Below are positions 37,697 through 58,341 of a stretch of 64,000 nt of DNA, in pieces. Each line of letters opens with the position of its first letter. Within the stretch, counting starts at the first letter, position 1. Under the pieces are notes generated by a model that saw only the letters and a program-made list of their open reading frames with translations, was not told the origin of the DNA and did no database searches. Made by a program: the position numbers and the translations under genes. Source of the stretch: Dehalococcoidia bacterium (GTDB lineage Bacteria; Chloroflexota; Dehalococcoidia; Plut-88900); the NCBI GenBank assembly GCA_965207225.1, contig CBDBLV010000005.1, forward strand, positions 1,568,001 to 1,632,000. The letters are read 5' to 3'.

Positions 37697-38968
37697 ATGC
37701 CTGTTACGCATAACAATGGCAATCTGCCCCAGGCCCTGGCCACGATGAAGGTCTTGGACCTTACCCACTATGTGGCCGGGCCATTCTGCACGAAACTGCT
37801 TGCCGACTACGGTGCAGAAGTAATCAAGGTGGAACGCCCCGGCCAGGGTGACCCGGGGCGAAGGCTGGGCCCTTTCCCCGAAGACAAACCCGGGCCCGAC
37901 TCAAGCGGCCTGTTTAGCTACCTCAACGGAAACAAGCTTGGCATCACCCTCGACCTGAAGCATGCAGCGGGCGTCGGGATTTGCAAGGAGCTTGTCGGGT
38001 GGGCCGACGTAGTAGTCGAGAGCTTCAGGCCGGGCGTGATGGCCGGCTACGGCCTCTCCTATAGCCAGCTTTCGAAGGCGCATCCCGGAGTGATAGTGAC
38101 GTCGCTCTCCAATTTCGGGCAGTCGGGGCCCTACAGGGACTACAAGGCCAGCGAGATCATCGAGTACGCGATAGGCGGCCCGATGCTGTTCACCGGCACA
38201 TCAAACAGGGAGCCGTTGAAGCTGGGGGGTCGGGTGGGGATGATTTTCGCCGGGCAGGAAGCGGCGATGGCGACGCTCATGGCGTTCTACAGAGAGATGG
38301 GAGGAGATGGAGGTGGGGACCACGTTGACGTTTCGATAATGGAGACCCAGGCAGGATCCATAGACAGGCAGACGGCGCTGCTGGTGAATTACCAGTACAC
38401 GGGCAACAGGTATTCGAGGCCCGACGCCTCGGAGGCCTACCTGGGCGGAGTCTATCCGGCGCTGGACGGCTATCTTGACGTCCAGGTGATTGAGAGATTC
38501 CCCCAGCTCCTGGCGGCCATGGGCCAGCCCGACACCATCACGGAGTCGGAGGCCGTCGAATTGGCGATTTTCCTGGACAAGTGGGAGAACGCAGACGGCA
38601 ACCCCCTGGAGAGCGGCGAGCTTATCAAGGATCTGGGCGTGATGTTGGAAAAGTGGGTCCGGGCCCGACCCATGGGCCCGGCCTGGGCCCAGTTCCAGAG
38701 GCACGGGACGCTATCGGCTGCATTTAACGACGCTGCGGGTGTCTACCGGGACCCGAGTTTCAGCCTGCGAGGACTTTGGACGAAGGTGGAAGGCGCGGAG
38801 TCAGGGGTGAGGCGTTTGCCCGGGCGCATTTCGATACTGGAGCGTACGCCCTGGCAGGCGCGGAGACCGGCCCCGGGCCTGGGCGAGCACAACAACGACG
38901 TTTACGGTGGGATGCTGGGGTACAGCCGCCGGGAGCTTGCAGGGCTAAGGCAGATGGGGGTCATTTAG
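37697..38968 (+). CDS. Class III CoA-transferase subunit (no catalytic Asp); possible upstream start at 37499
   Basis: KVLDLTHYVAGP, NGNKLGITLDL. Confidence 0.9.
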   Translation: MPVTHNNGNLPQALATMKVLDLTHYVAGPFCTKLLADYGAEVIKVERPGQGDPGRRLGPFPEDKPGPDSSGLFSYLNGNKLGITLDLKHAAGVGICKELVGWADVVVESFRPGVMAGYGLSYSQLSKAHPGVIVTSLSNFGQSGPYRDYKASEIIEYAIGGPMLFTGTSNREPLKLGGRVGMIFAGQEAAMATLMAFYREMGGDGGGDHVDVSIMETQAGSIDRQTALLVNYQYTGNRYSRPDASEAYLGGVYPALDGYLDVQVIERFPQLLAAMGQPDTITESEAVELAIFLDKWENADGNPLESGELIKDLGVMLEKWVRARPMGPAWAQFQRHGTLSAAFNDAAGVYRDPSFSLRGLWTKVEGAESGVRRLPGRISILERTPWQARRPAPGLGEHNNDVYGGMLGYSRRELAGLRQMGVI

Positions 38969-38973
38969 GCGAT

Positions 38974-40296
38974 ATGAGTGGGCGAAGGCTGCCCCTGGAC
39001 GGGGTCCGGATAGTCGACCAGACGTTGGCGTGGGCCGGGCCTTTCGGGGCACAGCTGCTGGCCGACTGGGGGGCTGAGGTGATCAGGGTCGAGCCGCTCC
39101 AGTTCATGCAGCGGGCGACCCGGGCCCCGAACATCAGGCCCTTCAAAAGACCAACGTCAAACTGGGCCAACGACTATCCAGACGGAAAACCGGGTGAACG
39201 CCACTGGAACAGGCACCTGATGTTCCAGGTTCACGGACGCAACAAGCTGAGCATCACCTCGGACCTCCCCGATCCCGGCTGCATGGAAGCCTACCTGAAG
39301 CTTGTGGCCGTGTCGGACGTTGTGGTGGAGAACAACGTGCCCCAGACCTACGCGAAGTTCGGGGCTAGCTACAAAACCCTCCGGCAGGCCAGACCCGACA
39401 TAATCCTGGCCAGGCTTCCGGCCTATGGTCTGGACGGCCCCTACGCCACATACCGGGCGGCGGGCCGTCAGATGGAGTCGCTGGCAGGTCACAACTGGCT
39501 GCGAGGATACAGGGACGAATCGACAGACGAGGCGAGTGACCTGATATCCGTGCGCGGCACAACTTACCTGGCCGACGCCGTGGGAGGTGCGAGCCTCGCG
39601 TTCGCCATCATGGGCGCCCTTTGCCATCGGAAGGCCACGGGCGAAGGGCAACTAGTGGAGGTCGCATCCGCCGAGGCAGTGGTCCACCACGTCGCCGAGT
39701 CCGTAATTGACTACGAACTGAACGGGCGTATCCAGGGGCCCCTGGGCAACGGGCATCCATCGAGGGCGCCCCAGGGCTGCTACCGTTGTAAGGGAGATGA
39801 CAACTGGCTGGTGGTCTCGGTGGGGAGCGATGAAGAATGGACGGGGCTTCTACGCGTGATGGAGGATCCGGCGTGGGCCCATGATTCCCGTTTTGCCACA
39901 ACGCTCGGGAGGCACCGTTGGCAGGACGAGATTGATGAACATATCTCGGCGTGGACCCGAGACAAGGACCACGTCGAGCTAATGCACGTTCTGCAGGCAG
40001 AAGGGGTGGCCGCGGCGCCCGTGCATGACCAGGAAGAGCTGTTCGATGACCCGCACATGAGGTATCGGGGGTTTTTCCAGGAGGTGCACCAGCCTTCTAC
40101 CGGGACCCACATCTATCCCGGGATGTCCTGGCAGATGGCCGGGACTCCGAACCCGATCAGGCGGCCATCCCCGATGCTGGGCGAACACAACGAGACGGTC
40201 TACAAGGAGCTGTTGGGGCTAACGGCGGAGGAATACGGCAGGCTGGAGGATGCGGGCCACATCGGGATGGACTATCCGGCGCACCTGTATGGCTGA
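38974..40296 (+). CDS. Class III CoA-transferase subunit
   Basis: PLDGVRIVD, RNKLSIT, YLADAVGG. Confidence 0.92.
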   Translation: MSGRRLPLDGVRIVDQTLAWAGPFGAQLLADWGAEVIRVEPLQFMQRATRAPNIRPFKRPTSNWANDYPDGKPGERHWNRHLMFQVHGRNKLSITSDLPDPGCMEAYLKLVAVSDVVVENNVPQTYAKFGASYKTLRQARPDIILARLPAYGLDGPYATYRAAGRQMESLAGHNWLRGYRDESTDEASDLISVRGTTYLADAVGGASLAFAIMGALCHRKATGEGQLVEVASAEAVVHHVAESVIDYELNGRIQGPLGNGHPSRAPQGCYRCKGDDNWLVVSVGSDEEWTGLLRVMEDPAWAHDSRFATTLGRHRWQDEIDEHISAWTRDKDHVELMHVLQAEGVAAAPVHDQEELFDDPHMRYRGFFQEVHQPSTGTHIYPGMSWQMAGTPNPIRRPSPMLGEHNETVYKELLGLTAEEYGRLEDAGHIGMDYPAHLYG

Positions 40297-40342
40297 GGCA
40301 AGGGCCAGCGCAATGCAGGCCCGAGCCTGAACACGAAGAGGC

Positions 40343-41275
40343 TTACCTGACTCTAGGCAGGACCTCTTTGGCAAAGGTCTCGTACAAATCCTCTATCTGT
40401 TCGGCGGGGCACTTTGCCGTAATGATGATATGGGTAAGGCCCGCGTCAATGTAACGTTGGATGCTCTCGGAGCAGTCATCCACCGTACCGAAGGCATAGC
40501 AGCCTTCCCCGACAGGTCTCGGGTCCCGCCCTGCGCCCTCCCGCACCACCCGACTCAACGTCTCCCACGCCTTTTCCCGTGACTCGCCGAGGCACGTGTA
40601 CATCAGGCATGCCCAGTCCATCCCCTCCGGCTCTCGTCCGAAGGACAGAGCGTAATCTGAGATTTTATCCATGCAGTCCTTGTAGATCTGCGCAGGAGCG
40701 CTATTCAGGAATCCATCGGCAAACTTTCCGGCCCGCCTCAGAGGGCCTTCCCTCAGCTTTCCGTCCCAGAACGCCGATGTCCAGATTGGCAGGCTGTTCT
40801 TCTGCACGGGTCTGGGCAGGACGGTGAGTTCTTCGAAGCTGAAGTGGTCACCGCGATGCGTTACGTTTGTTTCATGGACCAGCCTGCGGAGCACTTCGAG
40901 GGCCTCGTCATTGATCTTCGCCCTGGAAACGCCGCCCACCTGTGCCGCCTGCAGGTCCTTCTGGAAGACCCCGAGCCCCGTCCCCAGAATGAACCGGCCA
41001 TTGGACATGGCATCCAGGGAGAGAGCGGTCTTTGCCAGCTGGACGGGAGGCCTGGCGGGAAGAATCAGGACGCTGGTCCCGAGCCCGATGCGGCTTGTCC
41101 TCGCCGCCGCCCCCGACATGATTACCAGGGGGTCTAGGTCGGGGGTGGTGAGGAGGTCGGGGGCCCAGAAGGAGTCATAGCCCCAGCCCTCCAGCTTTTC
41201 GGCGAGGGTCGCCGGGTCAACAAGGGTCGGGAGAGTCGACCTAGGGTAGGTGGCCCCAAACCGTATTGCAGGCAT
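40343..41275 (-). CDS. LLM-class flavin-dependent oxidoreductase
   Basis: GYDSFWAPD, RIGLGTSV, SNGRFILGTGLG, LPRPVQ. Confidence 0.92.
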   Translation of the reverse strand: MPAIRFGATYPRSTLPTLVDPATLAEKLEGWGYDSFWAPDLLTTPDLDPLVIMSGAAARTSRIGLGTSVLILPARPPVQLAKTALSLDAMSNGRFILGTGLGVFQKDLQAAQVGGVSRAKINDEALEVLRRLVHETNVTHRGDHFSFEELTVLPRPVQKNSLPIWTSAFWDGKLREGPLRRAGKFADGFLNSAPAQIYKDCMDKISDYALSFGREPEGMDWACLMYTCLGESREKAWETLSRVVREGAGRDPRPVGEGCYAFGTVDDCSESIQRYIDAGLTHIIITAKCPAEQIEDLYETFAKEVLPRVR

Positions 41276-41299
41276 CGGCAAGCGGGTAGGCCGGTACCC

Positions 41300-42994
41300 C
41301 TAGCCGACCATATCGCGGCTGCGGAGGAGATGGCCGGGCAGTGCGCCCGTGCAGTCGTTCCCTTCGAAGGTGACCTGGCCGTTTACTATGGTGTAGCGGA
41401 GGCCGGTCGGTTTCTGGATAAGGCGGCGCTCGTCACCCGGGAAGTCGTGGGCAAAGATCACCTTGTCGTAGAGGAAGCCCAACTCCTCAAGGTTGTAGAC
41501 CATGATGTCGGCCCAGTTACCGACCTGAAGTGTGCCGCGGTCCTTGAAGTCTGCGAACCAGGCGGGCATGGTGCTCATCTTGTAGTGGGCCTGCTCCAGC
41601 GACATGATCTCCCTGTCTCTGATCCAGAACATGAGCCAGTAAACGGGCCACGTACTTCCGGTGGCAAACCTAGTGTGGGCACCACCATCGGAAACGGAGA
41701 TGTGACCGTAGGGGTCCTTGAACCGCCGGGCGGCCTTTTCTATGACGTCCTCGGAGCGCATGGTGGGGAGGGCGAAAACAGTTTCCAGGTCTTCGTCCAA
41801 GGCAAGATCGAGGAAGGCGTCGACGGGATGCTTGCCGGTCATTTCGGCGACCTCGCTGATGGTCCTGCCCTCGAACTGGACGTTGCGCTCGTGTTCCGTC
41901 TCCAACACCTTGACGATGTTCCAGGTGGTGCGGAAGTGGGGGATTTTCTCCACGTCGTCCTTCATAGCCTGGCGGGTCTCCGGGACTCTTAGCTTGGCGG
42001 CGCGTTCCTCGGGGCTGCCGACGAGGGGTTGCACCCAGTTGGGCATGTAGTCGTAGAGGTTGTACTCGGCGAGCTTGAACTCGCTGTCGAAGGGGGTGCA
42101 GACCAACTGGGTGACGAGGGGTAGGTTATCGGCTCGACAGGCCTTCAACCAGTCCCTGCCCTCGCCTAACTGCGCATCCAGCAGATGCAGGGGGCGACCG
42201 CTCCTTCTCATCAACTGTTCGCTCAGGTCACGGGCTCCGGTGCGTTCTTCCAGCGTGAGACCTGATCCAATGGTGACTCCGATATGACCCACTCCGAAGC
42301 CCCGCATGACGTCTGCCAGGGCGAGGAATTCTTCATCTGAGGCGACGACGGTCGGGAGGACGCTGCCGTCTTCGGCACGGTCTTCGAGGTTCTTGTCCAG
42401 GGCGAAGCCGAATGCGCCTGCCTGCATGGCTTCGTGGAAGATTTGCTTCATTTCGTTCAGTTCGGAGTCGGTGACGGATGTGCGTTCCCGTGCGGGATAC
42501 ATTCCCAGGACATATCCGCGCATGGGGGAGAAGGGAAACAGGGCCCCGACATTCAAACCGAGACCCTGTTTTTCAAGGCTGTCGAGATATTCCGGGAAGG
42601 TCTCCCAGTCCCAGCGCATTCCGAGGCGCATGGACTTGAGGGGTATGGCCTCGATGCGGTCCATCATGCGCATATTGAGGTCCCGGTCCTCGGGGCGGGT
42701 GGGGGCGAAGCCGAAGCCACACTGGCCGATGGTGAGGGAAGTTACGCCGAACCAGCCGGAAAGGGAGGCGTAGGGGTCCCAGTTGAGTTGTGCGTCGTAG
42801 TGGGTATGAAGGTCTATGGCCCCGGGGGCGACGTAGCAGCCCGAGGCGTCGATCTCTTTTGCGGCGCCGGCAGGGATGTTGCCGCTGATCATTGCGACCC
42901 GGCCGTCCTTCACGGCCACGTCTGCCCGGTGCCGGGGGACGCCCGTGCCGTCGATAACCGTGCCGCCCCTGATAACCAGGTCGTACTCTCTCAT
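41300..42994 (-). CDS. N-acyl-D-amino-acid deacylase-like amidohydrolase
   Basis: DLVIRGGTVIDGTG, PGAIDLHTHYDAQ, SDGGAH. Confidence 0.9.
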   Translation of the reverse strand: MREYDLVIRGGTVIDGTGVPRHRADVAVKDGRVAMISGNIPAGAAKEIDASGCYVAPGAIDLHTHYDAQLNWDPYASLSGWFGVTSLTIGQCGFGFAPTRPEDRDLNMRMMDRIEAIPLKSMRLGMRWDWETFPEYLDSLEKQGLGLNVGALFPFSPMRGYVLGMYPARERTSVTDSELNEMKQIFHEAMQAGAFGFALDKNLEDRAEDGSVLPTVVASDEEFLALADVMRGFGVGHIGVTIGSGLTLEERTGARDLSEQLMRRSGRPLHLLDAQLGEGRDWLKACRADNLPLVTQLVCTPFDSEFKLAEYNLYDYMPNWVQPLVGSPEERAAKLRVPETRQAMKDDVEKIPHFRTTWNIVKVLETEHERNVQFEGRTISEVAEMTGKHPVDAFLDLALDEDLETVFALPTMRSEDVIEKAARRFKDPYGHISVSDGGAHTRFATGSTWPVYWLMFWIRDREIMSLEQAHYKMSTMPAWFADFKDRGTLQVGNWADIMVYNLEELGFLYDKVIFAHDFPGDERRLIQKPTGLRYTIVNGQVTFEGNDCTGALPGHLLRSRDMVG

Positions 42995-43117
42995 GCCGTT
43001 CCTCTTATTACTTTCTTCTCGCAACGTTCCACTTCAATGCTGTGGGCAAGCTCATGTTAGCACATGCCGCGAATGAGCCGTGCGGAGCACCCCGCAAGCC
43101 GGGAGACCACCCGAGAC

Positions 43118-44194
43118 TTAGCCTCCCACATCCTCAAAAAACACCTCATCACAAGGCTCCCCCTCCTCCCTTAACGCCGCCTGCGACACCCTTATCCCCC
43201 GCCCGACAATCTTCGCCATCATCTCCACGAAGCCAAACATCGCATGGTGTATTTCGACCGGCGCTTTCTGTGCTTCAAATAATCGCCTGCGGGTTGTACG
43301 CAGGACGTATTTGTCCGGGGAGGGCGAAAATAGCTCGGACTCGTCTCCGGCCATGTCGGCTAGATGCTTCATGAACGTTGCCATAGACCTGGCGTTGGAG
43401 CCTTCTACATCCATTTCTGACAAGAGCTCCCGCCCGTACTGGATAGCGATGCCCTCGTATGACTTGCGGACGATCCGGGCAACGGTATCGAGGTCCAGGA
43501 TATCCAGCAGGGAGAGGACGGACTCCTCGACGTACCCCCGACCAAAATTCCTCTTCGACTTGGCTATCCGGTCCGGAGGCCAGACCTCTGGGTCCAGTTT
43601 CGGCGCAGTCTCCGGGTCAAACGGAGGCATCGTCTCCGAGGGATCGAACCTGAATCGCTCTTCGGGCGTGAGTTCATGGTCGTATTCCATGAAATAGCCT
43701 TCGGCGTATGGTTCACCGTCGGCAAACCCCCGACACAACACGAATCCAAGTTTCGGCTTGTTGAGCCGCACCCCGTTGTACGGGTGCCACCCCTCGAACG
43801 GCGCCCGACCCACGCTCGCCGGATTTGCAAGCCACCCCGTCCCGTCCGGAACGTAGGGCGAGTTGTATCGTATCCATGCCTTCTTCGGCGATTCCACCAC
43901 CATCTCTAGGTCAATCCCACCGAGCCCGTTGGAGAAGTAGTGGTACTTCGCGGCGACCACCGCAGGAGGTTCGGTGTCCGGGTCAATGCCCAGCTTCTTC
44001 AGCCCTTCGATGAAATGCCCTGACTGGTGTCGGTTGAGCATCTTGAAACGCCAATCGACGACGGTATCTTCGCCATGCCGGAAGAGTGTGACCACGGTCA
44101 TGCCTCCGACCCAGAGCCAGTAAAGATTGGAAATGAAGTCGCATTTACGCTGGAGCGACCACTGGTCGGGGGTGGGGGTGTTATCGAGTGACAT
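43118..44194 (-). CDS. Hypothetical protein
   Basis: 358-aa ORF co-oriented within a catabolic operon. Confidence 0.8.
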   Translation of the reverse strand: MSLDNTPTPDQWSLQRKCDFISNLYWLWVGGMTVVTLFRHGEDTVVDWRFKMLNRHQSGHFIEGLKKLGIDPDTEPPAVVAAKYHYFSNGLGGIDLEMVVESPKKAWIRYNSPYVPDGTGWLANPASVGRAPFEGWHPYNGVRLNKPKLGFVLCRGFADGEPYAEGYFMEYDHELTPEERFRFDPSETMPPFDPETAPKLDPEVWPPDRIAKSKRNFGRGYVEESVLSLLDILDLDTVARIVRKSYEGIAIQYGRELLSEMDVEGSNARSMATFMKHLADMAGDESELFSPSPDKYVLRTTRRRLFEAQKAPVEIHHAMFGFVEMMAKIVGRGIRVSQAALREEGEPCDEVFFEDVGG

Positions 44195-44242
44195 CTCTGT
44201 TCCTGCTTCTTCGCACGGACCACATATTTCCAGCTGAGACCA

Positions 44243-45550
44243 TCATACAGGCGGCCGGGTCACCATCAGCCCGGCTTCCTTTAGCCTGTCGATCTCTGCG
44301 TGCTTCATCCCCAGCAGCTCCCTCGCCACATATTCGTTGTGCTCACCGAGCATGGGGGCGGCCCTGTGCAGCACAACCGGAGTCTTCGACATCTGGAACG
44401 GAGCCCCGAGAAACTGCTGCGTCCCCGCTTTGGCATGGGGGACATCCCAGATGTAGCCCCGGTCCTTCAGGTGAGGGTCCTCCGCCACGTCCTGGTTGGT
44501 AAACACCGCTGCGGCGGCTATCCCCCTCGCCTGTAGCGAATGCATTACTTCCTTGTAGTCCTTGTCAGCCGTCCACCGCGAGATGTGGGAGTCCAGTTCG
44601 TCATAGTTGGCGCGTCGGCCTTCCTGGGTTGCGAACTTGTCTGAGCGTGCCCATTCAGGACCCCCGACCACCTCGCAAAACGACTCCCATTCCTCCTCAC
44701 CCTCCACCGAGATTGCCACCCACTTGTCCTCCCCCCGACACCTGTAACACCCGTAAGGAGCGAACTCTGAATGCCTGTTCCCGATTCTCTCAGGCTCTTC
44801 TCCGTTCATGCTGTAGGCCACGATGTGCTCCCCTATCAGCCCGATCATCGACTCGCTCTGCGCCAGGTCCACGTACTGCCCCCGACCTGTCCGACGCCTA
44901 TAGAACAAGGCAGTCAGAATGGCCTGGGCGGCGTGTACGCCCGCGCTCGGGTCTGCGTATGCTTCACCGTGCCGCAAGGGCCCCGACCCCTCGTAACCCA
45001 TTAGATTGGTGATGCCCGCGTTCGGCTCTATGTCGCTGCCGTAGCTCACGAAGTGGCCCTGTGGCCCGTAGGTCCCGAAGCCCGGCATCGACACCATGAT
45101 TATGCCCGGGTTCAGCTTCCTCAGCGACTCGTAGTCAAACCCGAAGTTCCTCATCACCCGTGCGCTGTAGTTCTCCAGCACCACGTCCGAAATCAGCACG
45201 AGGTTGCGGAATATCTCCTTGCATTCCTTGGCGGTCAGGTCGAGCGTGAGGCTCAATTTGTTGCGGTGATATTCGTTGAAGGCGCCATAGCGGTTGTAGG
45301 GTTCGTCTCCGGGGTCGTTGTCGGGATAGGCTGCATGGACGACGCGCATGTATTTCAGGGGTTGAGGTGGGTCGACACTCGCCAGCCCCCGACCCGTCGG
45401 CGCTTCGACCTTGATTACCTCGGCCCCGAAGTCGGCCAGGAACCTGCCCCCGATCGGCCCCGCCCAGCCCCGGGTCAGGTCCAGCGCCCGTATACCACTC
45501 AGCGCCGACTGTTTTGCTCCATTTCTAATGCGTGAAGCAGTTCGTTCCAT
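44243..45550 (-). CDS. Class III CoA-transferase subunit
   Basis: LSGIRALDL, RNKLSLTLDL, AYADPSAG. Confidence 0.93.
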   Translation of the reverse strand: MERTASRIRNGAKQSALSGIRALDLTRGWAGPIGGRFLADFGAEVIKVEAPTGRGLASVDPPQPLKYMRVVHAAYPDNDPGDEPYNRYGAFNEYHRNKLSLTLDLTAKECKEIFRNLVLISDVVLENYSARVMRNFGFDYESLRKLNPGIIMVSMPGFGTYGPQGHFVSYGSDIEPNAGITNLMGYEGSGPLRHGEAYADPSAGVHAAQAILTALFYRRRTGRGQYVDLAQSESMIGLIGEHIVAYSMNGEEPERIGNRHSEFAPYGCYRCRGEDKWVAISVEGEEEWESFCEVVGGPEWARSDKFATQEGRRANYDELDSHISRWTADKDYKEVMHSLQARGIAAAAVFTNQDVAEDPHLKDRGYIWDVPHAKAGTQQFLGAPFQMSKTPVVLHRAAPMLGEHNEYVARELLGMKHAEIDRLKEAGLMVTRPPV

Positions 45551-45566
45551 GCCATGCCATGCAGAC

Positions 45567-46781
45567 TTAGATTACCTTGGATGCTCCAAGCCGGGACATA
45601 TCGTCTAGGCTCATACCCAGGATATTGGTGTAAACGTCCTCGTTATGCTCCCCGAGCAGCGGCGCCCGGGCCAGTTGGTACGGCGTCTCGCTCATCTTGA
45701 ATGGTGCGCCGGGGTAGGTCTGCCGGCCGGCATACGGGTGCTCAACGTGCATCCAGAAGTCACGGGCAGAAAGCTGGGGATCGGTCATCAGCTGCCCGCA
45801 GTTATTGAATCTTCCGGACGGAATCCTCAACTCCTGCGCCCGACCTACTATCTCGTCAGCCGTATGCTCCATGAGCCACAGCAGCAATATCTCGTCGAAT
45901 TCATCGGCAAGGTTCCACCGATCGTGGCGGTCTGCATACCTGGGTTCGTCCAGCAGGTCGGGTCTTTCTATGAGGAGCATCAGGTTGTCGTACTGGTCAG
46001 GAGTCGCCACGCTGATCGACACGTAACCGTCCTTGCACGGGTAGAGTGACAGGGGATGAATCCCGACCGGGTGTCGGTTCCCTGCTCTTTCGTTAAGGAT
46101 CCCGACGTGAGTCCATACAACTATGGCGAATTCGTGGAAATAGGCCATGGTCTCCATCACGGAAACGTCGATGTACTGCCCCTCCCCCGTGCCCTCCCGC
46201 CAGAATAGCGCGGCGGCAATCGCATTGTAGGCGTGAATCGCTGCTTCGTACTCCGGGATGTGGCCGCTGCCGGTAAGCGGCTCCTTGTCGGGTTCTCCGT
46301 TCATGTACATCAGGCCCGTGACCGCATAGCTGATCATGGAGTTGGATTTGTAGTCCCGGTACGGCCCCGACTGCCCGAACCCCGTGATCGAACCCATGAC
46401 GAGGCCCGGGTTGGTCTCCTTGAGGCTTTCGTAGGACAGGCCCATTTCTGCCATGCAACCGGGCGGCAGGTCCTCCACCAGGACGTCGGCCTTCTCCACC
46501 AGCCTTTTGAATGTCTCCACCCCGGCTTTCGACTCCAGTTCAAGGGTGATGCTCTTTTTACCGGTGTTGAGGTAAAGGAAGGGTGCGCTGGTCTCCGGGT
46601 GGGGTGTGTCGTCGAGAAATGGCCCAGACCGCCGGAAGGCGTCTCCCTGCGTCGGAGGTTCGACTTTGACGACCTCCGCACCGAAGGCTGCCAGGTTCCT
46701 CGTGCAATAGGGAGCGGCCAGCCCCCGGCCAATTTCCAGCACCCTTATTCCTTCCAGGGCCTGGGGTATGGGTGCCTTCAT
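45567..46781 (-). CDS. Class III CoA-transferase subunit (no catalytic Asp)
   Basis: ALEGIRVLE, NTGKKSITL, HIPEYEAA at the Asp position. Confidence 0.9.
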   Translation of the reverse strand: MKAPIPQALEGIRVLEIGRGLAAPYCTRNLAAFGAEVVKVEPPTQGDAFRRSGPFLDDTPHPETSAPFLYLNTGKKSITLELESKAGVETFKRLVEKADVLVEDLPPGCMAEMGLSYESLKETNPGLVMGSITGFGQSGPYRDYKSNSMISYAVTGLMYMNGEPDKEPLTGSGHIPEYEAAIHAYNAIAAALFWREGTGEGQYIDVSVMETMAYFHEFAIVVWTHVGILNERAGNRHPVGIHPLSLYPCKDGYVSISVATPDQYDNLMLLIERPDLLDEPRYADRHDRWNLADEFDEILLLWLMEHTADEIVGRAQELRIPSGRFNNCGQLMTDPQLSARDFWMHVEHPYAGRQTYPGAPFKMSETPYQLARAPLLGEHNEDVYTNILGMSLDDMSRLGASKVI

Positions 46782-46897
46782 TTCGCTCAACCGTTGCCTC
46801 ATCCCTGGAAAGCGACGGGGCCGGGCGTCCCATCGTGACACCCGACCCCACCGGTTCTTTCTATTACCTTGAGAGCAACTCTCTGCTGCTTGACCTG

Positions 46898-48307
46898 CTA
46901 TTCAGACTGCCAGGCTACGAAGCGCTCGATCTCCGCACCCTGGGCTCTGGCCTGCCATACTTCGTCCACGAGCCAGCCATATTGGGCGTTCTCGGGGGAG
47001 GTGGGCAAGAACTGGCGGTCGTCTTCGAATTCAGGGCCGTCAAGGAGCGCCCAGGAGTCCTGGTTGATGGGCGAATACTGGATCTCACCGGAAATTCGGA
47101 CGTTTATCTCCGGGAAGGAGAGCCAAGCCATCACAAGCTGGGTGAGTTCAAACGCCTCGGGGTCCGCCTGCTTCAAGCCACCGGGTATAACCTGCGCGAA
47201 GGTGGTCATCAGGTGGCCGGCTTCCCAGGACATCTGCAGGGGGTCGCCGTTCAGGATGGCGGCCCCGAAACGCCCGTTGCCGGTGAGGCACATGTCCACC
47301 TCTCCGATGATGAGGAACGTGGGACAGTCGGAGGATGACGCCGCCCAGACGTCGATGTGAGGCTTGATGGCATCCAGGTACATGTAGGCCTCATCGATCT
47401 GCTCTTGGCTCAGGGTTCCCTGCGTCGTACCGATGTGCTCGGGGTTTTCACTCCAGTAGGCCGCCGTCACATAGCGCAACCAAGTCCAGCCTCGGCTGTC
47501 CAGGGCCCGGACGCCGGGGAAGTTCTCCACGTCGAAGAAGTCCTTCATCGTTCTAGGCCGGGTCTCTTCCGTGTACGTGTTGGTGCTGTATGCCAGGGGC
47601 TCGGAGGCTATGCCGCCCACTCCGGCGAAGTAGGGGTGGTTCCTCAGAATTCCGGCAAAGTTACGATTATCCACGACGCTCTTGTCGAGAGGTTCTAGGA
47701 GCCCGATCTGGCCAAGTTCGGCGAAGACGGGCGTAGTCCCGAGGGCGAAGGTCCACTCGAAGTTCTGGGTCTCCGCAATCAGCCGCAGTTTCGTGTTCGG
47801 GTTGGCTGTGCCATCCGCAATGACTTCGATCCCGAACTGGTCGGCGATGGGGTCGAAGTAGGCCTTGTTCTCGCCAGCCGTGTAGGCACCGCCCCAGGTG
47901 CCGTAGCTTATCGTCGATCCCCGGAACTTCTCCAGCTCCGCTTCAATCTCTTCTCGGGTTGCCGGGTTGTCGACAGTCCACTCTGCCGGGGGCCTCAGCT
48001 GGGACACGGGCTCCGGCGTGGCAGTGGGCGGAGGCGGTACGGGAGTCGGGGGGACGGGGGTGGGAGGAATTGGGGTTGCCGTCGGCAGGGGGTCCTCACC
48101 TGCTGCAGGCCCTTGCGGGCCCTGGGGTCCGGCGGGTCCGGCGTCTCCGGTGGGGCCAGCGGGTCCGGCGGGGCCAGCGGGTCCGGCAGGACCGGCGGGG
48201 CCAGCAGGGCCTTCACACGCCGCGAGCACCAGCAGCAATGCCAGCATCACGCCGAGCATTCCAATGATAACGCGCCCCTTAGTCATCTTTCGTCCAATCC
48301 TGAGCAT
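46898..48307 (-). CDS. Lipoprotein solute-binding protein (PotD-like) with collagen-like and Pro-rich stalk
   Basis: LLLVLAAC lipobox, 12 Gly-X-Y triplets, PTPVPP linker, TWGGAY...DFFDVENFPGVRAL...GNGR. Confidence 0.88.
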   Translation of the reverse strand: MLRIGRKMTKGRVIIGMLGVMLALLLVLAACEGPAGPAGPAGPAGPAGPAGPTGDAGPAGPQGPQGPAAGEDPLPTATPIPPTPVPPTPVPPPPTATPEPVSQLRPPAEWTVDNPATREEIEAELEKFRGSTISYGTWGGAYTAGENKAYFDPIADQFGIEVIADGTANPNTKLRLIAETQNFEWTFALGTTPVFAELGQIGLLEPLDKSVVDNRNFAGILRNHPYFAGVGGIASEPLAYSTNTYTEETRPRTMKDFFDVENFPGVRALDSRGWTWLRYVTAAYWSENPEHIGTTQGTLSQEQIDEAYMYLDAIKPHIDVWAASSSDCPTFLIIGEVDMCLTGNGRFGAAILNGDPLQMSWEAGHLMTTFAQVIPGGLKQADPEAFELTQLVMAWLSFPEINVRISGEIQYSPINQDSWALLDGPEFEDDRQFLPTSPENAQYGWLVDEVWQARAQGAEIERFVAWQSE

Positions 48308-48411
48308 AATCCCTCCCATATCATAAAGACCGGCTGTTCCCTGGGCACAAGTCGGCATTATGATGGGGCACAGGCCGAGGGGTCAAGCCTACACATCCGG
48401 CCGTATGCCTC

Positions 48412-48783
48412 CTCCCCCTTCTCCCCTGTCATTCCGATGCCCCGCGAGGAATCTGGGGCTGGCAGGGAGGCTGGTCCCCTCCCCTGGGCCGAGGGGCCGC
48501 TCGTGCTGAGGCTACTCGAAGTATGAGCGGAGGGGAGGCCCACGCCTTGCCAACCCGTCTCATTCCTCCATCACCAACCACCCCCTTCTCCCCTGTCATT
48601 CCGATGCCCCGCGAGGAATCTGGGGTTGGGAGGAGGCCGGTCCCATTTCCTGGGCCATGGGGCCGCTCGTGCTGAGGCCCTCGAAGTATGAGCGGGGGGT
48701 GGCCCACGCCTCTCCAAATAGTCACCTCAGTCTGCCATCCACCCACGCGCCTAACTGTCATTCCGATGCCCCGCGAGGAATCT
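48412..48783 (+). repeat. Tandem ~165-bp REP-like units
   Basis: GTCATTCCGATGCCCCGCGAGGAATCT at 48428, 48595 and 48757, alternating with GCTCGTGCTGAGGC..CTCGAAGTATGAGC. Confidence 0.85.
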
Positions 48784-48989
48784 AGGACTTGTCCACTCAC
48801 GCCTTTTACCTCCTCCCCCCTTCCTCTCCCCAGTACTGAACTAGAGGCAGAGGTTGGTGCTTTAGCGCCAACCTCGGCCTCTGTTATTCTCTCCCCCTCT
48901 CCCTTAAAGGCCCTAAGGGAGAGGGGGATAAAGGGGGTGAGGGTTCCCCTGTGGGGCCGGGGGGCATCCTCTCCTCCCAAATGGGACAT

Positions 48990-49018
48990 TTGCACTACCT
49001 GAACCCCCGTGCTATACT
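48990..49018 (+). promoter_or_regulatory. Sigma70-like promoter of MSRI cassette A
   Basis: TTGCAC-17bp-TATACT with extended TG. Confidence 0.65.
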
Positions 49019-49080
49019 ACACCCCAGGCCGCCGACCTCACACCTCGGCGCCCATCACAATGCAGGATCAAAGGAGTCCC

Positions 49081-49722
49081 ATGAGCCGCATAAGCCTATA
49101 TAGGCCCCGTCTCAGCCGAGCGGTATCCCGCCGCCCGGCCACCGGCACGCGCCTCCTCCTAACTCCCTTTTCATTCCCCGTCCTGCACCCCAACACCCAC
49201 AACAAGCGCTGCCCAAAGGCCCAACGCCTGGGCCTTCGCAGCGATCAATCACCGCCCCGCCCTCAATACTGCCTGGTCCCCGTGACCGGCAACGGAAGGT
49301 TCCTTAACTCAAATCGGCTAGCTCTACTTCATGGCCAACACCGTAGAATCAGCGCCCCCGTTCCAGGTCGAATCTACGTAGCCGGCATCGACCTCGCCGG
49401 CGAATCGGAACAACCGGGAGACGTCCGTCTCCAGGGCTTTAAGCCCACCCAAGATTCCACCGTCGTAACTATCGGCGAACTCCAAATGCTTGATGACGGC
49501 CTCGGCTCCAGGCTCCCCGCCCTCTCTGTCGTCGAGCGCCATTGGTGGACGGGGAAGCCCCACACCGAGACCTTTTCGGGCCTTGTCCACCTTCTCAAAG
49601 ACGTTTGGGGCTGCCGCAGGGTGGTCGTCGACGCCATTGGCATTGGCGCAGACGTAGCCGCCTTCCTGCCTAAGACCATAGGACCTTCCATCGTCGTTCC
49701 CCTCACCTTCACCGCCCCGACC
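49081..49722 (+). pseudogene. MSRI leader fused to a terminase large-subunit nuclease fragment
   Basis: AAAGGAG RBS; YVAGIDLAGE, DSTVVTI and VVVDAIGIG RNase H-like terminase motifs; no ATPase domain; frame then runs into repeats. Confidence 0.6.
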
Positions 49723-50312
49723 ATTTGCCCCCCCACCCCAATCGGGAATCCATCTCGAGGGGTGGAGCGGCCGGCCTCCGTAATGACTACCGGCGGGTCG
49801 CCCACCCCAGGGGAGGGGTCGCTCACCCTGAAGCCCCTCGAAGAGCCTGCCCCGATTCCCTCGAGGGGGTCGAGCGGGGTGGCCCACCCCCGACTGTCAA
49901 ATCTCGCCAGTCATCCCCGCCCACCCTATGCCGTCCTCCCTTCCCCTCTCCCCAGTATTGAACTAGAGGCCGAGGTTGGCGCTAGAGCGCCAACCTCGGC
50001 CTCTGTTATTCTCTCCCCCTCTCCTGTAGAGCCATCAAGGGAGAGGGGGACCAAGGGGGTGAGCGTTCCCTTCCTTCTTCTGAGACTGAGGCGCCCCTCT
50101 CTGTCGTCCCCGACTCCGGTCAAGAATCCCTCCTTTCCTCCCCCAGTATTGAAACTAGAGGGAGCAGTTGGCGCAGGCGCGCCAACTGCTCCCTCTGTTT
50201 TTCCTTCCCCCTCTCCCTTAAAGGCCCTAAGGGAGAGGGGGATAAAGGGGGAGAGGGTTCCTTCCCCGCCCCCTGCGACACGCGAAGTCCCCGGAAATCC
50301 CTTTAAGCGTCG

Positions 50313-50364
50313 TTCAATCAAACCAGCTACGAGTTCAATCAACCTTCAATCAACGTTCAATCAA
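50313..50364 (+). repeat. Four phased TTCAATCAA direct repeats
   Basis: Copies at 50313, 50334, 50345 and 50356. Confidence 0.8.
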
Positions 50365-50508
50365 AACCCCCCACCCCCAACCGAACAAAAGCGGGGTGCG
50401 TCACTGCCCAACAAGGGCAGGCTGTTGACGCAATCTCCTTTTGACATTACCTTGTCGGAGCAATTGCCGGACTGAGAGACCCCAACACAACAACTTGGGA
50501 GAAGCACT

Positions 50509-57052: not shown

Positions 57053-57235
57053 GATCAGACTCCTGCTGCCTTGTGTAATCGGGCCTCAGGTTAGCACAGG
57101 CGGGAAAGGGAGTCTATCAGCAGGGGGGAGATGAGATGAAGGTCGGTCTGGGTGTTGTGGGGGGAGGGGTGGGATTATGGGCTAGCGGGGCAGGTCCTTT
57201 CTATGGGCGGGACCCGCCACGCCCCCGCACCGCCC

Positions 57236-57400
57236 TGGATTCCCGACTGCTCGGGAATGACGGATTGGGAAGGGATGGATTCCGGCTCGGGGGCCGGAAT
57301 GACGGAAAGGGGAGGGGTGAGTTGCGGGGTCAGGGGTGAGTGTTTCGGAGGGATGGATTCCTGCCTCCGCAGGAATGACGAAGAAGAGGCGGGAATGACG
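57236..57400 (-). repeat. Cluster of CGTC-type REP palindromes
   Basis: TGGATTCC-n-GGAATGACG at 57236, 57276 and 57354 plus a half copy at 57389; the stems differ but stay paired. Confidence 0.85.
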
Positions 57401-57419
57401 GTGTAAAGGGAGGGGAATG

Positions 57420-57827
57420 CCAGCGCCCCCTCATCGGCGTAAGCCGGGGCGTCGGGGACCGGAACGTGGGCAATCGCCTGGGCGTTGGCCCGGGCAATCT
57501 TCGCAAGGCCGGGTAGGGCGTTGCGGGCGTACCTCCGCGCAAAGGCGCGGGCATCCACAGCGGAGGGGAAAGCTCGCAAAGGGTTAGCTGTGGGAAATAC
57601 ATCTGCGGCGAGCCTGGGCAGGCATCCACGGCGGAGGGGGGCACTCGCGGGGGTTAGCCGTGGGAACATCTGCAGCGAGTGAAAGCAGGCATCCATCCGT
57701 ACGCCGCTATGGGCGCAGGTGGGGTCCTTCCGCGGAAAACCGCGGGCATCCACGTCCGGGTGGGGCAGCAAGGGAAGATGCGGCTCCTTAGTGACGCCGG
57801 ACGGCAGTAGTCGAGAGGGGGCGCTGG
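57420..57827 (+). ncRNA. Candidate large structured RNA (unrecognised family)
   Basis: 13-bp closing stem, nested long-range helices, duplicated module with compensatory change, G-U pairs and a GNRA loop on the + strand. Confidence 0.5.
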
Positions 57828-57969
57828 GCTTTGAACTTCCACGGGGGAAGGGTGAAGGGCTGAGGGACACGGTAGGCGGAAAGGTAGTGGGGAGGAGGTG
57901 CGTGTCGGCAGAGGGTCGGTCCCATACCGACCGGGTGCGACGGGGCCATGTGAGGCCTATGCGGCTCAT
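57822..57969 (-). CDS. MSRI leader peptide, copy B (N-terminal conserved part; frame stays open to 57175)
   Basis: AAAGGAGTCCCATGAGCCGCATA identical to copy A; 17/34 aa identical with synonymous changes. Confidence 0.5.
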
Positions 57970-58032
57970 GGGACTCCTTTAGTCCTTTCCTGGTTTGGTG
58001 GCCCGGGTAACGAGGCCGGTGCCACGAACATA

Positions 58033-58060
58033 AGTATAGCACATACATTTACAAAATCAA
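58033..58060 (-). promoter_or_regulatory. Sigma70-like promoter of MSRI cassette B
   Basis: TTGATT-16bp-TATACT with extended TG on the minus strand. Confidence 0.65.
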
Positions 58061-58109
58061 TAGGTGGGGGTGGTAATGGAGGAACGCGACGGATTGCAAA
58101 AGCGTGGTC

Positions 58110-58291
58110 CGCCCCTGCTCATACTTCGAGTGGCCTCAGCATGAGCGGCCCAACCCCAAGAAGGAAACTCCCTCACCCCGCCCCAGATTCCTCGCGGGGC
58201 ATCGGAATGACAGGGGAGAAGGCTGTGGGTGGGGTGAAGGATGGTTGTGGGTTGGCGGGCGTGAGAGATCTTTCGCGGGGCATCGGAATGG
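58110..58291 (-). repeat. Inverted copies of the 48412-48783 REP-like unit
   Basis: GCTCATACTTCGAG..GCCTCAGCATGAGCGG at ~58117 and AGATTCCTCGCGGGGCATCGGAATGAC at 58185-58211; degenerate copy at ~58266. Confidence 0.85.
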
Positions 58292-58341
58292 GATAAAGGG
58301 AGTAGGGTAGGGGGCTGTGCTAAAATCGGCGAATCCGGGCA

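Follow-up and report, generated by a model that had tools for sequence, protein, structure and literature searches.

Two stretches of a 64,000-nt segment of a Dehalococcoidia genome (GenBank assembly GCA_965207225.1, contig CBDBLV010000005.1, positions 1,568,001 to 1,632,000; hereafter the window) begin alike, with a promoter, a 5′ hairpin, a ribosome binding site and a start codon, and then continue differently, which raises the question of what is being kept in them: a peptide, an RNA, a portable promoter or something else. Copy A is located at 48990–49228 on the forward strand and copy B at 57822–58060 on the reverse strand. A first-pass annotation made from the letters alone saw in them a duplicated expression cassette with a selected 34-residue leader peptide, joined to different cargo. 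The cassette forms the 5′ portion of a repeat that is dispersed through the genomes of a single genus; most copies also contain an internal piece of a phage large terminase subunit gene (terL), and the long reading frame that starts in the leader is maintained against nonsense and frameshift mutations while its protein sequence drifts.

Copy number, distribution and organization of the repeat

Copies A and B share 78% identity across 108 nt (blastn, E = 7e-16), far above chance. The duplication is real but is not confined to two copies: by blastn and by an nhmmer profile, the 4.03-Mb assembly contains exactly 17, which fall into subtypes A (seven copies, including 48990–49228), B (three, including the reverse-strand copy in the window) and C (seven). 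In a DNA search of 41 genomes, cassette matches are present in nine, the genome itself and all eight congeners (9–24 matches per congener), with none in the 32 genomes outside the genus; about 100 further copies are spread over the eight congeners, and the proposed check for other copies is thus positive both within and beyond this genome. A strict exact-pattern scan for the leader returned no viral contigs and one short metagenome contig, although its strictness makes the result little informative, and a narrow literature search found no published terminase-derived repeat in Dehalococcoidia. Family counts below refer, unless stated otherwise, to 117 copies, comprising the 17 of the genome itself (G000) and the first 100 of 102 matches in the congeners (G001–G008) that include the start codon; loci L157 and L158 were excluded, as were short additional fragments of places already counted.

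The repeated units are ~650–750 nt long, and all contain a sigma-70-like promoter, a 5′ hairpin, a Shine-Dalgarno (SD) sequence with an ATG, and a folded leader; their open frames span 190–790 codons. Copies A and B both carry GTGCTATACT, with a −10 element TATACT at 49013–49018 in copy A and 58038–58033 in copy B, separated from the ATG (49081 and 57969) by 62 nt and 63 nt, respectively, and the 23-mer AAAGGAGTCCCATGAGCCGCATA covering the SD and start codon differs at no position. An independent consensus promoter scan picks exactly these two promoters, both TG-extended: TTTGCA-18-TATACT at 48989–49018 (−35 TTTGCA/TTGCAC; 9/12 matches) for copy A and TTGATT-16-TATACT at 58060–58033 on the reverse strand for copy B. 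Both are followed by a 5′ hairpin (P1), at the predicted transcript start in copy A (49027–49052, core CCGA/TCGG; from sequence, pair counts and folds) and at 57998–58025 on the reverse strand in copy B (GTGGC-ACCGG / CCGG-GCCAC; from sequence and folding). The SD of copy A (AAAGGAG, 49070–49076) and its ATG (49081–49083) occupy columns conserved across the family; the SD of copy B is at 57980–57974. Promoter scan and sequence reading thus bear out the unannotated promoter, hairpin, ribosome binding site and start codon module described in the first-pass annotation. Among the 117 copies the promoter has at least 9/12 matches in 109, the median −10-to-ATG distance is 62 nt, the SD columns are at least 90% conserved, and the start codon is ATG in 113 copies and GTG in two.

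A conserved open frame with a drifting protein

The open frame of copy A extends for 464 codons (49081–50475) and that of copy B for 264 codons (57969–57175, reverse strand). Over 900 nt of copy A there is no stop codon in the ATG frame, compared with 13 and 8 in the other two, and the same asymmetry runs through the family. The first 150 codons of the 117 copies, unfiltered, contain 28, 548 and 255 stops in frames 0, +1 and +2, and 110, 0 and 9 copies, respectively, are stop-free over this length. Between the members of 32 non-overlapping sister pairs, whose mean divergence is 0.126, no new stop has arisen where ~63 would be expected; this test and those of the ratio of non-synonymous to synonymous substitution (dN/dS) used 65 of the 66 terL-bearing copies, one having been left out for having a stop. 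The net length difference between sisters is a multiple of three in 25 of 27 pairs, as are 32 of 46 individual gaps under a strict gap penalty. The frame also stays open through the first downstream miniature inverted-repeat transposable element (MITE) in 16/16 cases, while the same MITEs are open in the other frames in 1/16 and 7/16, against a background of 15–21 of 61 genome copies open in a given phase. The frame is therefore maintained against both nonsense and frameshift mutations.

The encoded protein behaves differently. Codon-position entropies are 0.70/0.75/0.87 in the first 36 codons and flat in the terL part (0.63/0.63/0.71), and the median dN/dS over 1594 pairs is 0.80 in frame, compared with 0.91 and 0.81 when the frame is shifted by one or two bases. 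Codon-usage scores are close to 0 in the cassette open reading frames (ORFs) and 0.25–0.36 in neighboring genes. With the exception of one orthologous pair (see below), neither dN/dS nor the entropies give evidence of purifying selection on the protein sequence. The 34-residue peptides of copies A and B do have 17 residues in common, as first noted and as counted by eye, but the coding selection attributed to them does not hold: the leader entropies rise little toward the third position, comparison of the copy A leader with its ortholog gives a dN/dS of 1.62, and the conserved blocks are RNA helices. A family-wide dN/dS near 1 that changes little in shifted frames likewise counts against a selected peptide. 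The suspicion that the peptide is simply the N-terminus of a known protein was half right, in that it begins a long ORF, though not one of a known protein.

The folded leader and the type B domain

Four leader helices (P1–P4) were proposed by eye and then pair-counted on 113 distinct leaders, so that the structure was scored on the same leaders from which it was drawn, which favors it. In these leaders 87.4% of helix cells are paired, compared with 29–48% when the structure is slid along the alignment, and changes on both sides occur in 14 of the 25 pairs; the number of cells with such changes (79) is reached in none of 500 shuffles (18.5±3.4). RNAalifold returned an empty structure for the 113-leader alignment. 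P1 has both-side changes in 5/7 pairs and forms in 6/6 single folds. P2 and P3 (49094–49105 and 49116–49138 in copy A) are hairpins within codons 5–20 of the frame and show compensatory changes at 3/4 and 5/9 pairs, respectively. P4 pairs the SD with a near-invariant anti-SD-like block, CGCCUCCUCC, and has 93.6% of its cells paired; only one of its five pairs shows a both-side change, leaving it without independent covariation support because both strands are almost invariant. The corresponding segment of copy A (CACGCGCCTCCTCC, 49146–49159) is its most conserved block, and contains a CUCCU able to form pairs with the SD. When six diverse leaders were folded at minimum energy (z-scores of −1.5 to −3.3), five had the SD in a long-range helix. 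The leader thus has a conserved secondary structure, backed by covariation in P1–P3.

Type B is a rearranged derivative with a helix-closed repeat domain of ~400 nt. The unit that includes copy B, delimited by comparison with a 98.5%-identical paralog, occupies 57418–58073 on the reverse strand, starting shortly before the −35 element and reaching to the 3′ arm of the closing helix. Its domain (57418–57829) is bounded by the arms GCCCAGCGCCCCCTCTCG (57829–57812) and ATGAGGGGGCGCTGGC (~57434–57418) and contains internal tandem hairpin units of ~67 nt, identified by a tandem repeat search. The 408-nt structure that had been ascribed to copy B corresponds to this domain, which has a fold z-score of −5.3 and closing arms that covary, GCGCC/GGCGC being replaced by GCGCT/AGCGC in ~14 copies from several genomes. 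The domain was also considered as an independent MITE, and this was rejected as it is found only behind the cassette.

An alternative in which the units, and type B especially, are structured non-coding RNAs, with the ATG frame incidental to a C-rich and stop-poor sequence, would account for the covarying leader and closing helices, for the fold z-scores of both, and for conservation that operates at the nucleotide level. C-richness, however, leaves unexplained why frame 0 alone stays open, with 28 stops where the other frames have 548 and 255, and insertions and deletions that preserve the frame, together with the conserved SD and ATG, speak for translation. Rfam searches matched a tRNA alone in the whole window and nothing credible over either cassette at E ≤ 10. 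We regard an untranslated RNA family as improbable.

Two features of the leader region vary among copies. An additional hairpin module, GGAACATCCGCC...GGCGGAAC, is inserted between P1 and the SD in 26 of the 117 copies (e.g. L051, L053, L056, L062) and is sometimes present twice. A GTGACA(C/T) motif located ~10 nt upstream of the −35 element CCCCTTGAC is conserved in most congeners (e.g. L052:95–115) and is shortened to GGGACATTTGCAC in the window subtypes; it may serve as an operator or as a site for an activator.

The terminase-derived body and its origin

Beyond the leader, 49191–49716 of copy A (forward strand, in the ATG frame) corresponds to approximately residues 195–375 of the resident large terminase subunit, and aligns without gaps to a full-length terL gene on contig C1 with 71% nucleotide identity over 526 nt (blastn); amino acid identity to the two full-length paralogs of the genome is 65–70% (tblastn). 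Upstream of 49191 the identity to terL is 28–30%, a background level. The terL homology therefore starts inside the 48990–49228 interval and takes in the 8-bp hairpin AAGGCCCA/TGGGCCTT at 49217–49237, which is present as reported but does not precede the terminase fragment. It is enclosed by a longer hairpin, P5 (49207–49243, CGCTGC..AAGGCCCA / TGGGCCTT..GCAGCG), which has a lower entropy than any other block of the terL-like alignment, whichever of the three codon positions is considered. Nor does the likeness between copies A and B end at CCCA(A/G)CGCC, where the first reading had placed its limit; by eye it goes on patchily, e.g. as TACTGCC.GTCC.

A terL-like piece is present in 71 of the 117 copies and always covers approximately residues 194–375 of 464; in 67 of these 71 it continues the reading frame of the leader, with 32–67% identity in frame 0. 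The 36-codon leader stands in place of the first 190 residues of the terminase; the unit lacks the ATPase N-terminus, and of the nuclease domain it lacks the C-terminal half. The join is ~100 nt past the ATG in most copies; by reading, type C joins terL slightly further in and type B keeps short terL-derived strings in common with type A. Copy A retains the motifs GIDLAG and VVVDA, while most copies are without the acidic motifs. The full-length paralogs match four PHROG TerL families weakly (E from 7.5e-5 to 1.2e-3), one of them adjoins an SPP1-type portal gene, and database relatives of the terL fragment carry PF17289; a sequence search of the PDB with the full-length protein gave no match. 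For the copy A ORF and the fragment there were no Pfam families at E ≤ 1, no PHROGs and nothing relevant in NCBIfam. As judged by alignment, the body of the unit is homologous to a bona fide terL gene.

The notion of one expression cassette joined to different cargo survives in part: the downstream sequence and host genes vary, but the cargoes are not independent, in that subtypes A and C and the start of B share the same internal terL segment, and a single ancestral fusion follows. A portable cassette with a selected 34-residue leader peptide and independently acquired cargoes could draw on the leader module being common to units whose downstream parts align poorly, and on different subtypes occupying one orthologous site in different species (see below). 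It is largely refuted, since the peptide has no coding constraint and the join to terL is at the same place in most copies, and we give it very little credence.

The homology also admits a protein function, for example of fast-evolving, truncated TerL derivatives acting as dominant-negative or decoy proteins against phage or satellite packaging, in which case an arms race could average dN/dS to ~1. The conserved promoter, SD and ATG, the protected frame, the in-frame TerL likeness of 67 of 71 copies, and a dN/dS of 0.35 between the terL parts of copy A and its ortholog are all in keeping with this; gene callers predict such proteins in many assemblies (231 matches), and the 1–4 intact terL genes of each congener offer possible targets. 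Nevertheless, dN/dS is the same as in shifted frames, entropy is flat, codon usage differs from that of host genes, and the ORF has no Pfam, PHROG or NCBIfam match. The nuclease Asp motifs are replaced in degraded copies (by reading, GIDLAG becomes GVHLAG), the frames continue through MITEs to arbitrary ends, and the best-conserved blocks are RNA helices. A decoy protein is accordingly an unlikely explanation.

In all nine genomes of the genus there are 1–4 intact terL genes (70–85% amino acid identity), and each terL gene of this genome is preceded by a small ORF resembling the small terminase subunit gene (terS). A covariance model built from 43 cassette promoter and 5′ untranslated regions was searched against 20 kb around the two terL loci, and its two best matches directly precede the terS-like ORFs (E = 0.0014 and 0.0087, values that are weak and only roughly calibrated). 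The likeness reaches into the promoter spacer, and one of the terS-like ORFs starts with MSR, as does the cassette leader. This suggests that the unit may be an internal-deletion derivative of a packaging operon. The two loci differ in their surroundings: at L159 (G000:C5:236001–246000) a full-length terS-like gene and terL are followed by a MITE and the SPP1-type portal gene, while at L160 (G000:C1:229001–239000) terS-like and terL genes stand alone between UbiA-family and PQQ/beta-propeller genes, raising the question of whether the two-gene module is mobile or domesticated.

Genomic setting

The gene that follows is co-oriented with the cassette and identified by Pfam in 14 of the 17 copies (hand-computed binomial P ~0.006). 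The 16 scanned downstream genes have 12 different top Pfam families and include CoA-transferases, luciferase-like monooxygenases, amidohydrolases, ribosomal protein S2 and an RNase D-like protein, with no functional theme among them. Similar promoters thus precede non-homologous genes within one genome, as in putative mobile promoters. In the window, the frame of copy A stops 33 nt before, and in phase with, the ATG (50509) of a decarboxylase gene, and that of copy B ends 122 nt before the listed TTG start (57052) of a luciferase-like monooxygenase gene.

The units occupy intergenic DNA that is prone to insertions and, around both window copies, full of repeats. They lie among copies of a MITE-like, hairpin-rich repeat for which blastn gives 167 matches in the genome, 61 being of 100 nt or more. 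It contains a 19-bp stem followed by a T-run, resembling a terminator, as well as a second palindrome. One copy (48825–48960) is directly upstream of copy A and two others (~49930–50075 and 50130–50262) are within its open frame, and those downstream of cassettes are always in the same orientation (16/16). The transcribed strand of the units is 40% C and 25% G, and a rho gene is present in the genome.

Insertion sites are polymorphic among related genomes. The block containing copy A (~48368–50421) is missing from four genomes, in which the flanking genes are ~70 nt apart; two closer genomes carry a copy at this site. At the copy B site a unit is present in G008 and G007 and absent from G001, G005 and G002; the G007 site (G007:C1:2485388–2486911, orthologous to window 57053–58341) holds a type C cassette, L101, where this genome and G008 hold type B, which suggests replacement or conversion between subtypes. 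Such presence and absence at orthologous sites is what is seen with MITEs and insertion sequences. The inserted blocks also hold MITEs, so the mobility of the unit itself is not isolated, and the boundaries of type A and C units are obscured by the MITEs that abut them.

These patterns would also be produced by a selfish or decaying repeat without host function, copied by MITEs or by recombination, its frames kept open by intact master copies or fast turnover. Embedding in MITE clusters and neutral protein evolution agree with such an origin, as do the type C cassette at the copy B site of G007 and other patterns resembling gene conversion: the terL part is fresh in copy A and its G008-like ortholog and degraded in a more distant ortholog. 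Turnover does not readily explain, however, why none of the ~63 stops expected on sister-pair branches is seen in copies that are 12% diverged on average and hence not too young, why leader helices are kept by compensatory changes across species, or why almost every copy has kept its promoter and SD, and there are no terminal repeats or target duplications at the type B boundaries. A selfish repeat alone is in our estimate an unlikely account, on a par with the decoy protein.

Proposed function

A conserved promoter, SD and ATG, a leader that can hide the SD, an open frame that drifts in sequence, a C-rich and terminator-studded transcript, and an orientation toward genes together point to selection on translation itself. 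Nonsense mutations classically act on downstream transcription through Rho (polarity). We tentatively favor, at somewhat less than even confidence, an account in which degenerate derivatives of a packaging operon multiplied upstream of host genes and translation of the frame keeps transcription running. An internal deletion of the packaging operon, whose promoter region before the terS-like gene preceding terL resembles that of the cassette, would have given rise to the ancestral unit, which may then have multiplied, possibly carried between flanking MITEs. Ribosomes following the RNA polymerase would shield the long, C-rich, hairpin-bearing transcript from termination by Rho and at hairpins, including the terminator-like 19-bp hairpins and T-runs of the MITEs within the copy A frame, such that transcription from the cassette's strong promoter would reach the downstream host gene. 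A stop codon in the frame would uncouple ribosome and polymerase, and Rho or the hairpins would end the transcript before the host gene. The SD-sequestering fold of the leader would gate this read-through. The further step, that the family is a mobile, translation-gated read-through module whose long phage-derived spacer ORF is selected only for the passage of ribosomes and whose spread would place scattered metabolic genes under one signal, is possible but doubtful.

Several observations weigh against selection on translation. Part of the 14/17 figure is automatic, as nine sites are divergent intergenic regions where either orientation faces a gene, and the remaining three copies are followed by an ORF on the opposite strand, called by codon score only. 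Host genes seem to keep their own upstream regions, in that the ~90 nt before 50509 are conserved in genomes without the insertion. The terL parts of copy A and its ortholog differ by 15 synonymous and 16 non-synonymous changes, and their dN/dS of 0.35 could reflect protein constraint, or gene conversion from an intact terL. Under a lax gap penalty multiples of three account for only 49 of 180 gaps, and the copies of the family are related to each other, so that counts over them overstate independence. The helix-closed 400-nt RNA domain of type B fits poorly within a translated frame. The E-values linking the cassette promoter to the packaging operon have the weakness noted above. No terminal inverted repeats or target duplications are present at the boundaries of the three type B copies, no transposition machinery was found, and a lookup of RNA runs returned none with cassette sequence.

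If translation is indeed what is selected, the family would offer a clear natural example of selection acting on the process of translation and not on a protein, replicated in more than 100 paralogous frames, and would bear on how transcription–translation coupling and Rho polarity shape non-coding DNA. It would likewise bear on the movement of promoters and riboregulators around genomes, and phage packaging genes would have been recycled into the intergenic architecture of the host. It would also bear on inflated counts of hypothetical proteins in uncultivated Chloroflexota, as protein databases already list at least 231 such ORFs.

Comparison with known systems

Putative mobile promoters are near-identical promoter regions located before non-homologous genes, possibly with a regulatory RNA motif (Nijveen, Matus-Garcia and van Passel 2012, PMC3575422); that paper names Correia elements, ERICs and REPINs. 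The cassette family likewise repeats promoter regions before non-homologous genes of one genome, but it also carries an SD, an ATG and an open phage-derived frame that is several hundred codons long, occurs in a single genus only, and has no visible transposase ends. Translated leaders gated by a riboswitch or other structure and required for downstream expression have also been described (Kipkorir et al., PMC11260477). The folded 5′ leader of the cassette can similarly occlude a translation start, and expression of the next gene is proposed here to depend on translation of an upstream frame; in contrast to those short, single-copy ORFs, the cassette frames are 190–790 codons long, multicopy and of phage gene origin. 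Among promoter-bearing dispersed repeats the evolutionary signature is unusual, and neither analogue has multicopy phage-derived frames of hundreds of codons.

Compared with the TerL genes of tailed phages, the type A and C bodies are homologous to residues 195–375 of the resident terL, but represent an internal fragment only, without a profile match and evolving neutrally. Non-autonomous deletion derivatives and prophage remnants similarly keep a regulatory end and an internal fragment of their parent at polymorphic sites; the parent of the cassette, however, would be a packaging operon and not a transposon, recognizable element termini are not kept, and, unlike in dead deletion copies, the reading frame is under selection. 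Other candidate identities, including IS200/IS605-like elements, RAYT/REP systems, type III toxin-antitoxin systems, retrons or diversity-generating retroelements, and a pac site, were dropped, as there are no similar end hairpins and no adjacent enzyme or toxin gene, the promoter is part of the repeated unit itself, and copies along contig C5 alternate in orientation.

Additional features of the repeats and the window

Some units contain internal tandem repeats. Type B relatives from G001–G004 (L036, L039–L041, L030, L033, L034) have tandem units of 60 nt, translated as ...GVEADACGIAPRMTSRSAS..., and several type A copies (L142, L143, L146) have a 159-nt duplication of the terL-like DSTVVT...EVWGC block; the periods of the internal repeats of both types are multiples of three. 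A second, short palindromic repeat, of the type GTCATTCC..GGAATC, is present at 48757–48785, 58180–58207, 58262–58290 and 57340–57395, in the same intergenic blocks as the cassettes.

Upstream of copy A is a reverse-strand ORF (46898–48358) resembling solute-binding proteins, with a collagen-like run, GPAGPAGPAGPAGPAGPTGDAGPAGPQGPQGP, past a signal-like N-terminus. In the preceding region (38776–46841), genes for CoA-transferases of family III, luciferase-like proteins and amidohydrolases are densely clustered. These families are also found downstream of other cassettes, a recurrence that probably just mirrors their abundance in the genome.

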